Assembly (NCBI GenBank): GCA_951406725.2
Contig: OX597823.1
Location: 112,344,001 to 112,408,000 of the forward strand
Direction of reading: 5' to 3'
DNA length: 64,000 nucleotides
DNA from: Octopus vulgaris
Lineage: Eukaryota
In this document: one piece after another, positions 142 through 54,987 of the stretch
Layout of the letters: each line of letters opens with the position of its first letter
Numbering within the stretch: position 1 is the first letter of the stretch
Program-made: the position numbers and the translations under genes
The notes under the pieces: model-generated
What the model was told of the DNA's origin: nothing
The model's input: only the letters and a program-made list of their open reading frames with translations
The model's database searches: none

Positions 142-360
142 AGTTAATCCAAACATGAAAACACAAAGAGAAAACACAACAATGTGAGGACGTGGAACAA
201 GTATAGTGTTATTGGACGCTCAGGAAAGGAAAGAAAGAAGAAGGGTTTAACGTTTTGAGCGGAGCTCTTCGTCAGAAACATAGGAAAAAGAAAGATTCAA
301 GGAAGGGAAGACGGAGGGAAAAAAAATCACCAACGATACATACGCGGTCACATTTTGAAA
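142..360 (-). mobile_element. Solo PLE pseudo-LTR-like element, family A, in (TA)n
   Basis: Flanked by TA repeats. Near-identical copies at 36061-36245, 44136-44350 and 53753-53972. Shares the gctcaggaaa motif and hammerhead layout with the 3' end of the PLE at 20735-20960. Confidence 0.75.
245..279 (-). ncRNA. Minimal type I hammerhead motif (family A), G12A-mutated
   Basis: Minus strand reads GUUU-CUGACGA-A-GAGC-UCC-GCUC-AAA-ACGU-U-AAAC. The GAAA has become AAAA in this copy. Confidence 0.7.
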
Positions 361-1159
361 ATATATATATATATATATTCAAGGCATGGAAACATTACTG
401 AAATAGTAAGGGAATGATAGAACTTTATGTTATTCAGGAGAAAAAGTGTTGACAGGGACCCTAAAATGCGAGGGGGAAAAGGTATGAGAGTATGCCAGCA
501 GCCAGAGTGACACAAGTTGATGAAAGGCTGTAGAGAAGGAAACAGAGAATGTAGAGTGAGTTGGGACCCAAGTGGTCCGATCTAGTTTCCCAGTCCATAA
601 GCCTCAAGACGGGGATCAAGTGATGAGACAGGTGGCAGAGGTGCCCAGGAGTGACACAGAGGAGAGTTGCGGACAAGATCTGAATAGGTGCAGTAGCACC
701 TTAGTTACACAAGCATTAGTGTACAGCAGACGGAAGAGATCTTGTGCCACTGTCAGCCACTGCGGAAACTCAGCAATCGGAGCTGCGAAGAGAAAAGAGT
801 GATCGAGAGATCAGTAATAGGTATGGATGAAAGAATGCAATATAAAGCATACACAATATAAGCAATAAAGCATGTGTGCATGTGTGTGTATGTGTGTGTG
901 TGTATTCATGAGAATATATGTATATGTATTTATATATGTGTGTGTGTTTGTGTATGTATATGTACATACATATATAGAATAGTCTGTTTCTGGAGAAGCA
1001 AAAAAATCTTCACCAGTTACACCCACACACACATACACACATACACACAATCACAGGAGCACTCATCCCTTATCATGAAGACTTCTTCTCTACTCCTATC
1101 CCATAACACCACTACCTGATAATATTGGCCATAAATAACCCTCCCATTCACACACACCC

Positions 1160-1450
1160 TCCCTACCACCACCACTACTGTCACTGCCACCACCACCACC
1201 ACCACCACCGCCGCCGCTACCACCATCACCACCACCACCACCACCATCACCAGAATCACCACCAAAATGAAACTGGAGTATATGATAAATTATATGATTC
1301 ACATGGCTGAGGTGGGTGGATATAGAATGATACATACAGAGAGAGAGAGAGAGAGAGAGAGAGAGAGAGAGAGAGAGAGAAAGAGGGAGAGAGAGAGAGA
1401 GAAAGAGGGAGAGAGAGAGAGAGAGAGAAAGAGGGAGAGAGAGAGAGAGA
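1160..1450. repeat. (ACC)n and (AG)n microsatellites
   Basis: Direct reading. Confidence 0.95.
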
Positions 1451-2186
1451 AATGATATGAAGGCTGCAAAATAAATAGTTTTGATTTATTTCTGTGCGAA
1501 TGTTTACTACTGGAGCAGAGTGGAACAGCAAGTTAGATCTGGGTGAGTGAATTCTGAAATATGGTTTCAATTCCAAGTTGAAGACAATTCATTTCATTTA
1601 CAAATTCACCTAATGAATTCATTTTACCTTATCTAATTCTTGCACTGCCAGGAATGATGAGATTCAGAACCCTGGGAGATGAGGCAACTACTATGTGGTC
1701 ACTTGAAATGCTAGAAATAACAGCCAATTAACTTCCCGTCACAACTGACTGTCTTAAAAACAAAATGAAGGACACGTTAGATACTGTCGTCATAAAAGTA
1801 TGTTAGGATGGTCATAGCTGGAATGTCATTTTTTGGATTACTAGGTCTGTTTGGTCAGAGCTGACCTGAGATGGGACAAAAGTGGTTCTTTGTAAATACT
1901 TTGGTCCATGCAGTGTACCAGACAAATGGGTGTCAGTAACTTTGTCACACTCTTTAGAATTTTCATCCGGTTACAATTTAATTATACCACACAACATGGA
2001 GCAGTACATATAAGTATGTGTGTGTACATATATACGCATAAGGGCATCCAGCCATAGAAACCATGCATAGGCTGCTCGTCAGCTGGCCAGCTCCTGTCAA
2101 ACCGTCCAGCCCATGCCAACATGGAAAATGGACGTTAAATGATGATGATGATAACAGTCTCAACCAAAACCCTAATTTAAATATAT

Positions 2187-2417
2187 TTCTTTACTACCCA
2201 CAAGGGGCTAAACACAGAGAGGACAAACAAGGACAGACAAACGGATGATTAAGTCGATTATATTGACCCCAGTGTGTAACTGGTACTTAATTTATCGACC
2301 CCGAAAGGATGAGAGGCAAAGTCGATCTCAGTGGAATTTGAACTCAGAATGTAACAGCAGACAAAATATGGCTACGCATTTCGCCCGGCGTGCTAACGTT
2401 TCTGCCAGCTCGCCGCT
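2187..2417 (-). mobile_element. tRNA-derived SINE family 2 (GCCTTTCATCCTTTCGGGGTCGAT core)
   Basis: Head ggcgagctggcagaaacgttagc with gagttcaaattc B-box. Further copies near 2505-2660, 6137-6370, 11950-12180, 19262-19490, 20363-20520, 28810-28970, 33380-33610, 52124-52335, 52440-52580, 61670-61870 and 62863-63070. Confidence 0.85.
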
Positions 2418-3202
2418 TTCATAATTTAAATTCAATTATTACCCTAATTTAAATATTAAGACTTCTCATCCTGTCACAACACTTAAGTTTTAATAATGAT
2501 AATAATCCTTTCTACTCTAGGCACAAGCCTGAAATTTCGGGGAGGGGATTAGTCGATTATGTCAACCCCAGTGCATAACTGGTACTTCATTTATTGACCC
2601 TAAAGGATGAATGGCAAAGTCAACCTCAGCAGAATTTGAACTCAGATTATAAAGACGGATGAAATGGACATTAAATGATGAAGATGATGAGGAGGATTTT
2701 CTTTCAAGTTGTACTTTTTCCTCTGCACCCGTAATTTTTCCCTCATCATACAACAAGGAGTGGTGCTACTGGTTATTGCAGTAAGGTAACAAAGAGTTGT
2801 GAAGAGGGGAGACTGGTATTCATGGGTGATTTCTGGTGGTTTCTGGGTGATTTCCACAAACAACCTTGCTCAGGCTTGTGTCCCAGAGGGAGACTTTCTG
2901 GGTGTGGTCCCATAGTTATTCATGATCGAAAGGGGTCTTTACCCTTCTACTCACAAAGAATATCAATTTCTGATGTTAGAGAGTCTGTAGATAATTCCTA
3001 AAACGTATTCTTTGAATATTCATAACCATTTAACAAAGAAAGTTGACTTTGGTAGAATTCGAACTCAGAACTTAAAAGTAGAGAACTAGATATATACTAT
3101 TTTGTTACCCCTAGTACATCGATACAAAATTTGGGGAAGGGTATATTCCGTTACAAAGACTGTACTAATTGATTGGTACTTGTTTTATTAGCATCCTGGA
3201 AG

Positions 3203-3630
3203 CAGTGCCGGATTAAGACCCGTAGAGGCCCTAAGCACTTAAAAGGTTTTGGTGCCCTCAAGTATATATAAATGGTTCAAAATGTAAGCAAAAATAATTT
3301 TAAATGTAAACAATAATAAACCATAAAATAAATTTTCAGTTTTCAAAATGAAACAAAATTAACAGAAAGATGGAAAACAATGTTTATTTTTTTGTGCTTC
3401 CACTTCATTTATATTTGGAAAGTTTCCTCCGTTTTGATCAGATCCTCAAAATTAATTTTACATAAAACTTCTACTTCTATACTTAATAGAGATAAGGGCA
3501 CCCCAAATATTATTTTAGCAAGTTTAAAGTGATGTCTTTCATGCCATAAACCATTTTCGTTTCAGTGGTGCCCGAGGCCTTTGATGCCCTAAGCACTTGC
3601 TGATTTTGCTTAATGGTTAATCCAGCACTG
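3203..3630. mobile_element. Non-autonomous hAT-type element (MITE / deletion derivative)
   Basis: TIRs CAGTGCCGGATTAA and TTAATCCAGCACTG. 8-bp TSD cctggaag / actggaag. Minus-strand remnant LSLLSIEVEVLCKINFEDLIK resembles a hAT transposase C-terminus. Confidence 0.85.
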
Positions 3631-53752: not shown

Positions 53753-53972
53753 AAGTTAAACCAAACATGAAAACACAAAGAGAAAACACAACAACGCGAA
53801 GACATGGAACGAGTATAGTGTTATTGGACGCTCAGGAAAGCAAAGAAAGAAGGAGGATTTAACATTTCAAGCAGAGCTCTTCGTCAGAAACATAGGGAAA
53901 AGAAAGATCCAAAGAAGGGAAGACGGAAGAAAAAAAATCGCCAATGGTACACATGCGGTACACCCGCGGTCA
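53753..53972 (-). mobile_element. Family A pLTR-like element with hammerhead (53857-53891)
   Basis: GUUU-CUGACGA-A-GAGC-UCU-GCUU-GAA-AUGU-U-AAAU, with TA flanks. Confidence 0.78.
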
Positions 53973-54261
53973 CATATATATACATACACATAGCCATACT
54001 TACATACATATATACATACATATACATATATACATATATATATATATATATATATATATATATATATTAACAATTGAGGATAAAATCTTTAAAAGAAATT
54101 ATCAGTAGTTTTATTCCGAATAGACAATTTGTAACCGAAATGCATTGCGAATAAGCCCGCCATTTTCATAGATATGTAAAGATAAACATTCGGACATGCT
54201 ACGACGAATTCTACGGTTGGCTATCGAGCTTGTAATGTTATGTTTTTCTCTTATATTTCTT

Positions 54262-54340
54262 GAGTTTGTTGCACTGATGAACATAAAAATGCATATTCTG
54301 CATTTAAATGCGAAATCACATGTGATATGTAACTGAATTC
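54262..54340 (+). ncRNA. Type I hammerhead motif in TA-flanked element 54067-54457
   Basis: GUUGCA-CUGAUGA-ACAU..AAAUGCA/UGCAUUU..AUGC-GAA-AUCACAUGUGAU-A-UGUAAC. 12-nt palindromic stem III. The closing pair of stem II is an A-C mismatch. Confidence 0.82.
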
Positions 54341-54682
54341 TTTTTTAAAATGATGTGTTTTGAAGTTTTGCATTCGGTAAAATTTTGTTTATTTAGTAGT
54401 TTTGACCGCATTGGTCCCTCTTAGCGTGTTGGTATCTACGAATAGTAGTACCCTCAATATAATATATATATATATATATAAGTAGACAAATGAATTATCT
54501 TATTACGGATAATTCGAAAGATAACCGATACCTGGGTAGCAAACTCACAACAGAAAGGGCACGGTTGAAGTTACGACCATAGGGCATAAAATCCGTGCCT
54601 TAGTGCGGAAATTTGAAGTATCATATATTAAGTATAGGAAAGAATGGAGCTGAACAAAGATTTAACAAAATTCCTTTATTTT

Positions 54683-54768
54683 ATTTTCGACATATGTTTC
54701 GAAGTCTGCAAAGCCTCTAATTCCGAATGAATAAGGAGTCCATTATGCAGCTTTCTCTTCAGGAAAAT
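54683..54768 (-). ncRNA. Canonical type I hammerhead ribozyme (left arm)
   Basis: AUUUUC-CUGAAGA-G...long stem II...C-GAA-ACAUAUGU-C-GAAAAU, GUC triplet. Confidence 0.88.
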
Positions 54769-54901
54769 CCAGGAACTTAATTCTTTTCGACAACTGCTCA
54801 CGAGGAGCCCATAAAAATAATGATCCATTATTTTTATGGGCTCCTCGTGAGCAGTCGTCGAAAAGCTTGTTGTGCATTTTGTTGGAGAATTAAGTTCCTG
54901 G

Positions 54902-54987
54902 ATTTTCCTGAAGAGAAAGCTGCATAATGGACTCCTTATTCACTCGGAATTAGGGGCTTTGCAGACTTCGAAACATACGTCGAAAAT
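54902..54987 (+). ncRNA. Canonical type I hammerhead ribozyme (right arm)
   Basis: AUUUUC-CUGAAGA-GAAAGCUGCA...UGCAGACUUC-GAA-ACAUACGU-C-GAAAAU, GUC triplet, cut after 54981. Confidence 0.88.

Follow-up and report, generated by a model that had tools for sequence, protein, structure and literature searches.

An earlier note on a 64,000-nucleotide stretch of the Octopus vulgaris genome (hereafter the window) listed fourteen hammerhead ribozyme motifs in it. This raises the question of whether the motifs are genuine, which elements brought them to the locus, and what part self-cleavage plays in the spread of those elements.

Fourteen type I hammerhead layouts

The type I layout was present at all fourteen of the listed positions, each time in the order stem I, CUGANGA-like core, stem II, GAAA, palindromic stem III, UH, stem I (Table 1). 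Eight of the motifs (245, 20864, 29424, 36165, 44239, 45803, 53857 and 54683) lie on the minus strand, so the coordinate given earlier marks their 3' end. The motifs belong to nine families (eight if B and B2 are pooled), slightly more than the seven to eight first estimated, and two additional remnants, absent from the earlier note, were found at 43587 and 43731.

Table 1. Hammerhead motifs, remnants and associated coding sequences in the window.
Feature	Positions	Strand	Context
Family A minimal type I hammerhead, G12A lesion	245..279	-	truncated tail of ~220 nt, ~142-360
Family H hammerhead, U4C, 2-bp stem II with GNRA loop	15092..15129	+	tail 15079-15233 of Hydra-type element
Family B hammerhead, family-wide A6U core	20864..20901	-	3' pLTR; element end ~20735 against (TA)n
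Family B Neptune-type ORF, 5'-truncated	21513..23228	-	RT (Pfam RVT_1, E 1.5e-7), CX4CxxC linker, GIY-YIG with CCHH
Family F hammerhead, U3-A8 core	29424..29462	-	tail 29333-29483
Family F GIY-YIG endonuclease fragment	29492..29803	+	inverted relative to tail
Family A hammerhead, U4C and G12A lesions	36165..36199	-	
Family C copy, degenerate, absent from earlier note	43587..43691	+	
Family I remnant, 5'-truncated	43731..43887	+	only stem I 5' strand, CUGAUGA, strand 3' of CUGAUGA
Family A hammerhead, G at position 17	44239..44273	-	copy reaches upstream to ~44622
Family B2 hammerhead, A6U, stem III pair lost	45552..45587	+	left arm of tail-to-tail pair
Family B2 hammerhead, A6U core with G8A lesion	45803..45838	-	right arm of tail-to-tail pair
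Family C hammerhead, canonical core, long stem II insert	49290..49375	+	Hydra-type element tail 49230-49508
Family E hammerhead, family-wide C3U, first stem I pair lost here	53514..53556	+	in 53431-53722, part of 356-nt ORF-less head-to-tail unit
Family A hammerhead, canonical core	53857..53891	-	tail 53747-53960
Family G hammerhead, canonical core, A-C at stem II base	54268..54333	+	in 54109-54461; short inverted 5' piece 54075-54109
Family D hammerhead, canonical core	54683..54768	-	left arm, with tail, of one head-to-head insertion
Family D hammerhead, canonical core	54902..54987	+	right arm of head-to-head insertion

Stems I to III are paired in all nine families, with different letters in each. 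Stem III is palindromic (positions 15.2-16.2 and loop 3) in the majority sequence of every family, with a central odd or even loop in C and H. The G10.1-C11.1 pair is formed in A, B, B2, C, D, E and F and is absent in G and H, while an unpaired base between positions 9 and 10.1 is confined to A, B, B2 and F. When aligned across families with MAFFT, the sequences did not line up by structure. The core is canonical at five of the fourteen sites and carries a family-wide variant at another five; the remaining four have copy-specific catalytic lesions, at G8, G12 or position 17. The families are predicted to cleave themselves at a specific site, as a dimer or with a protein. Many genomic copies are probably dead, and the variants A6U (B and B2), C3U with G8 (E), U4C (part of H) and A-C at the base of stem II (G) may lower activity. 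A 2017 study by Lunse et al. reportedly covered Penelope-like element (PLE) hammerhead variants, and A6U, C3U or U4C cores may be described there.

We give practically no credence to the reading that such motifs arise by chance in repetitive, AT-rich DNA. The dinucleotide-shuffle comparison proposed earlier came out clearly: a strict descriptor found four motifs in the window against a mean of 0.04 and a maximum of one in 100 shuffles. A second strict count gave 11 against 0.25, and family profiles matched 33 times in 400 kb against zero in five shuffles. Background is appreciable for the descriptor that tolerates one core mismatch (seven in the window against a mean of 1.24 per window and a maximum of three in 25 dinucleotide shuffles, or ~5 per 400 kb). 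The proposed Rfam search recovered none of the fourteen sites at the gathering score, nor any hammerhead among the 150 of 481 matches listed at E up to 10. None of the descriptors used caught all fourteen sites, and the remainder were confirmed as copies of families that keep the layout elsewhere; a version that permitted no bases before stem II missed most sites for that very reason. Against the chance reading, which the strict and profile counts refute, every site also occupies a fixed place in a repeat family.

Extrapolated genome-wide, the strict motifs number ~77,000 (35,000-126,000) in 2.8 Gb, and an unbiased sample of 400 kb contains about one family copy every 12 kb. The first-look candidates, 1144-3331 for each family, are not copy numbers. 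This density is unusual and well above published counts in other animals, although descriptors differ between studies; Cervera and de la Pena (2014, PMC4209133) gave 2,000-9,000 per genome with their own descriptor. The minimal type I hammerheads of PLEs in that paper share with ours a short or palindromic stem III, an unpaired base before stem II (here in A, B, B2 and F), U3-A8, a predominance of lone motifs left by truncated elements, pairs on opposite strands at spacings of 100-700 bp and many families in one genome. The family-wide A6U core of B and B2 was not met in the available part of it.

Most of the short units probably derive from coding elements

Almost all of the motifs were said to lie in short non-coding units. 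There are exceptions: the site at 20864 terminates a 2.5-kb family B element with a 571-codon RT-endonuclease frame, and that at 29424 adjoins an endonuclease fragment in inverted orientation. In seven of the nine families (A, B, B2, C, D, F and H) the upstream sequence in other copies leads into a frame for RT and/or GIY-YIG with the same orientation, which indicates that the short units are coding elements inserted with a truncated 5' end; the suggested linkage to such frames failed only in E and G. A same-strand ORF was found upstream at 13 of 30 loci in B, 2 of 30 in C, 10 of 30 in D and 6 of 25 in F, and at those six loci the F endonuclease fragment is on the strand of the tail, unlike in the window copy. 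The first 60 loci of A and the first 25 of H contained no ORF. For A, the link was reached by walking upstream at two loci (L330 and L331). For H, it is provided by one locus (L043) and by another (L388) that holds a complete pLTR-ORF-pLTR element with a 711-codon frame; outside the window this family has many near-identical copies, including intact ones. The B2 link comes from one locus only (L234).

Could most sites instead, as first proposed, be short elements without autonomy, either solo pLTRs or SINE-like retrozymes, that are transcribed in their own right? E and G apparently are such elements, most examined copies of every family have no ORF within 1.5 kb, and the 30 best matches of family A share about one start. 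That start, however, is a product of the query, and a query placed further upstream recovered longer copies. The longer copies of the seven coding families run unbroken into their frames, with 5' ends spread over a range from tens of nt to beyond 1000 nt. We thus regard this account as very improbable for most sites, and only the part of the original proposal that derived the motifs from several PLE lineages is directly supported.

Clades were assigned from motifs, rather than from an RT tree. On these motifs we class A, B and B2 as putatively Neptune-type and C, D and H as putatively Hydra-type, with a single ORF that has GIY-YIG at its C-terminus. The 711-aa H protein has RWK at 36, DKT at 112 and YRDD at 343; D has RWL, DKT and YRDD in a broken frame, and its RT is 41% identical to that of H; for C, the endonuclease end alone was observed. 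All three lack CCHH and have CxxC and CxH near the C-terminus, features shared with the Hydra-clade EN+ PLEs of Craig et al. (2021, PMC8557442), as are RWK or RWL, DKT, a (TA)n target, a hammerhead, an inverted 5' copy and a tail. The CxCX5C linker of that clade is present in C, has its second cysteine replaced in H and is absent in D. The CX4CxxC linker and CCHH of A and B are those of the Neptune clade in the same paper. The broken A frames are ~50% identical to B, and B2 is 73% identical to B at the DNA level, its Neptune-type assignment coming from one locus. Pfam did not recognise the Hydra-type and F proteins, and a homologue search returned relatives together with one 81% match that carries an octopus protein label. 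The octopus families catalogued in the PMC8557442 supplement include Hydra and Naiad, and the one octopus Hydra hammerhead seen there, Hydra-1_Obim, is distinct from all nine families.

The 3' ends of almost all the units were described earlier as abutting (TA)n. At 13 of the 14 sites (TA)4 or longer lies within 250 nt on the 3' side, compared with 29% of 5000 random positions; the exception, 29424, ends in a TAA run. Across copies, 3' ends are fixed at one or two sites against (TA)n, 5' ends are variable and second head-to-head arms are frequent, with 63 head-to-head, 9 direct and 3 tail-to-tail arrangements among same-family neighbours less than 800 nt apart. The 3' ends form two clusters in E and G, and likewise in C, D and H, as for the PLE 'tail'.

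Taken together, it is highly probable that the 3' terminal repeats of nine families, seven PLE-coding and two ORF-less, bear type I layouts and that all nine were likely pasted into (TA)n by PLE proteins, with self-cleavage predicted only for dimers or with protein. By analogy with published work (PMC11167929, PMC8557442), the PLE protein would nick both strands of AT-rich DNA, and reverse transcription would begin downstream of the hammerhead, at either of two internal sites, and mostly halt early, an early halt that would leave short tails and inverted arms.

ORF-less units and a probable permuted hammerhead

Judged by sequence, E (356 nt) and G (499 nt) are the only two of the nine families that behave as ORF-less head-to-tail retrozyme-like units. 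Their longest ATG frames are 36 and 50 codons, respectively, and no upstream ORF was found at 30 E or 25 G loci. Copies extend more than 20 nt beyond one unit length at 14 of 30 loci in E and 16 of 25 in G. A further ORF-less family of 822 nt, I, is represented in the window by the remnant at 43731; it has 3016 first-look candidates and a young subfamily with 97-99% identity. Among the best 25-30 loci per family, the longest runs were 563 nt (E), 764 nt (G) and 1309 nt (I), about 1.5-1.6 units, and no E or G locus in this set held two complete consecutive units. Some runs in the three families have two hammerheads in direct order. No copy ends at the cut site, but the queries bias where copies end, and this is given no weight here. 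Contigs that match E, A, G and D come from runs only presumed to be RNA, no run on record as RNA being listed; such matches are no demonstration of transcription or cleavage.

Like metazoan non-LTR retrozymes (PMC7229834; Li et al. 2026, 10.64898/2026.07.22.740005), E, G and I are ORF-less and low in GC (0.44, 0.30 and 0.39, respectively), are arranged head-to-tail with one hammerhead per unit, and have PLE-like insertion structures. Those retrozymes form long arrays, whereas the examined copies here reach only ~1.6 units; their hammerheads are type I, whereas that of family I is permuted. Cuts at two hammerheads could release unit-length RNA, possibly ligated into a circle, and E and G may be copied by a borrowed protein from circles or uncut multimers, as extrapolated from PMC4209133 and PMC7229834.

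In full family I copies the hammerhead is non-circularly permuted, with the cleavage-site block followed by the GAAA block and then the CUGANGA block. Stems I and III covary, with both-side changes at 4 of 5 and 5 of 6 pairs in 16 sequences. The partner of stem II that is better supported lies upstream of all three blocks (84-89% Watson-Crick, 4 of 5 pairs covarying), which opens the chain between A9 and G10.1; covariation supporting such an opening was matched in 0 of 500 shuffles. The strand 3' of the CUGANGA core then pairs elsewhere than in the register of type SGC (Eckert et al. 2023, PMC10085705), where stem II would be 50% Watson-Crick with 1 of 4 pairs covarying. That register is 97% paired when G-U is counted, and plain type SGC is thus only disfavoured. 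A stem II paired to G8-A9 of the core itself was rejected, since no covariation backed it. Family I shares with type SGC the block order, a ~3-nt linker between stems I and II and the crossing of stems I, II and III. It differs in being genome-encoded, type SGC coming from metatranscriptomes only, with none in genomes of known organisms, in the available part of that report. In type SGC, CUGANGA is also joined to stem II, whereas in family I the chain is open at A9/G10.1 and two extra helices enter.

No prior description of this wiring was found in open-access text. The available part of PMC8557442 annotates Naiads with 'HHR_core / half_core', gives them no canonical hammerhead and proposes no fold; the end of its Naiad_Obim consensus has, judged by eye, the strand order of family I. 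A Naiad ORF joined to family I was not found, and Hydra matches upstream of 3 of 30 family I loci were judged unrelated neighbours. Family I is also matched in contigs of runs under four other organism labels; this demonstrates neither transcription nor cleavage. On balance we lean towards family I being an actively spreading retrozyme with an animal-encoded permuted hammerhead, in which the blocks are reversed and pseudoknotted and the core is opened between A9 and G10.1, where an outer helix together with a hairpin closes a four-way junction, and which may be the supposedly missing ribozyme of Naiads.

The role of cleavage

In the single PLE tested in vitro, cleavage required the protein and was dispensable for insertion: catalytic mutants inserted normally, and there were no RNA ends at the cut site (PMC11167929). 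The hammerhead fold might accordingly be kept as a protein-binding or folding signal, with cleavage weak or unimportant for copying. Low in vitro activity (PMC4209133), the recent spread of families with A6U (97-98% identity) and C3U (95-98%), and the reading through of the cut site in copies longer than one unit are in keeping with this. Catalytic positions are nonetheless retained across nine families with entirely different stems, position 7 is free to vary in B and B2, and F restores the 3-8 pair as U3-A8, a pattern that fits selection on catalysis. We consider a role as a signal only to be unlikely, though a good deal less so than the other alternatives above.

The PLE-hammerhead system is already described (Cervera 2014, 2020; Craig 2021), and the fourteen sites add uncatalogued-looking families to it; alone, they therefore matter little. 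The first point of specialist interest is their density. For the role of the PLE hammerhead, young H copies with intact frames, together with B, E and F, which have fixed different core variants, offer natural tests of the need for catalysis. If the family I fold cleaves, CUGANGA and stem II would be separable, against prior assumption, and the apparent lack of hammerheads in Naiads would be explained.

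Hammerhead motifs in the window

The type I hammerhead layouts that the earlier note had read from sequence at 14 sites were borne out. All parsed in scans of both strands, eight of the 14 on the minus strand, and they fall into nine repeat families (A, B, B2, C, D, E, F, G and H). The window is about 36% GC and rich in microsatellites, and both its SINEs and an 81% match to a protein labelled octopus give it an octopus-like character. Within it, a strict descriptor matched four times (0.04 on average over 100 block-wise dinucleotide shuffles), a descriptor with one core mismatch seven times (mean of 1.24 in 25 shuffles) and a third descriptor eight times (0.9 in 40 shuffles); six of these eight are sites from the note and the other two are probably chance matches. 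Profiles of the nine families retrieved all 14 sites and a degenerate copy at 43587, a recovery that is circular because the profiles were seeded from the window. A search of the window with Rfam at the gathering score matched no hammerhead. The association with (TA)n on the 3' side also held, as 13 of the 14 sites are followed within 250 nt by a run of at least (TA)4 (29% for random positions).

Core states are listed in the table. A G at position 17 blocks cleavage. The catalytic residues of the hammerhead are given as G8 and G12 in a section of PMC11300833.

Hammerhead cores and other features (window positions; L numbers denote other genomic stretches compared)
Feature	Position	Strand	Detail
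Hammerhead core, canonical	49290, 53857, 54268, 54683, 54902		
Hammerhead core, family-wide variant	20864, 45552		A6U
Hammerhead core, family-wide variant	29424		U3-A8
Hammerhead core, family-wide variant	15092		U4C
Hammerhead core, family-wide variant	53514		C3U
Hammerhead core, copy-specific lesion	245		G12A
Hammerhead core, copy-specific lesions	36165		U4C, G12A
Hammerhead core, copy-specific lesion	44239		G at 17
Hammerhead core, copy-specific lesion	45803		G8A
Further type I hammerheads outside the nine families	L247:5008-5837, L252:3-48, L253:16-60, L255:2657-2702, L266:3273-3348, L276:9327-9386, L283:7707-7756, L229:1030-1075		
Tc5/pogo-type transposase DNA-binding domain fragment	12122-12514	-	Pfam PF03221
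15-bp tandem array, ~50 copies	55689-56560		open on both strands

A minus-strand match to the Rfam vault RNA at 51205-51295 (42.9 bits versus a gathering cut-off of 34, with a T run after it) is plausibly a vault RNA gene; no similar copy was found among the genomic loci compared. The minus-strand frame at 29081-29320, beside which family F is inserted, had no Pfam match, and we take it to resemble the endonuclease found at the C-terminus of non-LTR retrotransposon proteins.

Elements behind the families and their insertion

Family queries each gave 1144-3331 first-look candidates, of which 40 were scored and 25-30 fetched. The proposed link to RT and/or GIY-YIG frames stood for A, B, B2, C, D, F and H and failed for E and G, which are units without an ORF. 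The window copy of family B forms the 3' terminus of a 2.5-kb element, and its 571-codon frame (RVT_1, a CX4CxxC linker and GIY-YIG with CCHH) lies upstream in 13 of 30 loci. For family A, no ORF was found in the first 60 loci compared; walking upstream past a long CA-rich 3' UTR led to a frame ~50% identical to that of family B; in two of 14 loci inspected (L330 and L331), this frame is joined to the A tail with both on one strand. Family B2 was linked at one locus (L234). Hydra-type frames accompany C in 2/30 loci and D in 10/30, and F has a same-strand GIY-YIG frame in 6/25; in the window, the GIY-YIG frame is inverted relative to the F tail. A decayed Hydra-type RT frame fragment (23507-24035, plus strand) adjoins the family B element at its 5' end.

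No ORF accompanied family H in the first 25 loci compared. One copy (L043) reaches a Hydra-type endonuclease, the best 40 matches to its 3' UTR were all given as 100%, and L388 holds a complete pLTR-ORF-pLTR element with a 711-codon frame, plus an inverted truncated arm. Because numerous copies of one family H subfamily (L387-L390; contig C1 of assembly G000) are near-identical and have open 700-codon frames, it has probably been active very recently.

In E and G (periods of 356 and 499 nt), the sequence past the 3' end is that preceding the 5' end, the longest ATG frames have 36 and 50 codons, and 14/30 and 16/25 copies, respectively, exceed one unit. Since copies run past the cut site and beyond one unit, the template would have to be either a multimer left uncut or a circle formed by ligation.

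The 3' ends occupy one or two fixed positions, immediately next to (TA)n external to the unit. Same-family neighbours within 800 nt are arranged head-to-head (63), directly (9) or tail-to-tail (3). The 54683/54902 pair is a single head-to-head insertion with the tail on one arm, and 53431-55042 is a stack of four families with TA runs between them. Tail-to-tail B2 arms at 45517-45880 are 98% identical to each other and at most 90% to any other copy compared, which suggests homogenisation between arms or a local inverted duplication. The insertions resemble those of the Penelope-like elements described in parts of Craig et al. (PMC8557442), which form partial tandems, carry inverted 5' copies and tails, and prefer (TA)n. 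They also match sections of Frangieh et al. (PMC11167929) that report priming at two internal sites and extension on both strands. We propose that the element's protein would nick (TA)n, that priming would occur inside the element's RNA downstream of the hammerhead, and that copying would mostly end early. With a palindromic stem III, cleavage is predicted to take place in dimers (part of PMC4209133). Catalytic mutants of an anole element are reported to insert normally in vitro (part of PMC11167929), which counts against a required role of cleavage.

Reversed order of hammerhead parts in family I

Overlooked by the earlier note, 43731-43887 is a remnant of family I, an 822-nt ORF-less head-to-tail unit. 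The best 40 of 3016 first-look candidates were 97-100% identical, 13/30 copies exceed one unit, identity in older subfamilies falls to ~70%, and two copies occur in a 400-kb genome sample. The hammerhead parts run in reversed order, from cleavage site to GAAA to CUGANGA.

A split-core structure, open at A9/G10.1, was compared with the type SGC structure, our initial parse, on 16 longer sequences. In an unguided scan for stacks, five helices ranked above the SGC register: stems III and I, an upstream hairpin, a stem II whose partner strand lies upstream, and an outer helix joining the far 5' end to the strand 3' of the core. The five-helix split-core structure was 92.7% paired with both-side changes in 19 of 26 pairs versus 91.4% and 12 of 19 covarying pairs for SGC, counts that are inflated by kinship of the sequences and include stems I and III in both structures. 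None of 500 shuffles attained the split-core score, and slid controls gave 41-52%. The SGC stem II is mainly G-U, with one of four pairs covarying. Both the outer helix and the hairpin reappeared when a single copy was folded (z -1.7).

A search of open-access text found no prior description of this wiring. Parts of Eckert et al. (PMC10085705) assume CUGANGA to be inseparable from stem II and report finding no SGC RNA in the genome of any known organism. Judged by eye, the published Naiad_Obim consensus ends in the family I block order, and Naiad_Ovul is labelled 'half core' (both in parts of PMC8557442); in the loci compared, no family I copy was found joined to a Naiad frame. The pseudoknot hammerhead in a section of PMC11300833 is a pistol-like form, distinct from the family I wiring. 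A different motif, present as two direct copies 433 nt apart (L103:458-529 and 891-962, minus strand), fits the reversed-order descriptor weakly.

Abundance in the genome

The genome (2.8 Gb, 227 contigs) was sampled as 40 evenly chosen 10-kb stretches. Strict matches numbered 11 in these 400 kb versus 0.25 in 20 shuffles, five of the 11 lying outside the nine families on manual reading. Family profiles gave 33 matches, 23 with both core halves, and none in five shuffles of 400 kb. Genome-wide extrapolation puts strict motifs at ~77,000 (bootstrap 35,000-126,000) and family copies at ~230,000 (140,000-330,000); motif density is higher in the window than in the sample. Published counts, from descriptors that differ from ours, exceed 6,000 in a coral and run as high as 120,000 in axolotl; part of PMC4209133 gives ~9,000 in Xenopus and 4,000 in coelacanth. 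At least seven additional type I hammerhead families occur beyond the nine; the hammerhead at L229 has a U3-A8 core and lies behind a Neptune-type ORF. The observation of hammerheads at 14 sites is real; they are of a kind already known, and their families are apparently new members of it.
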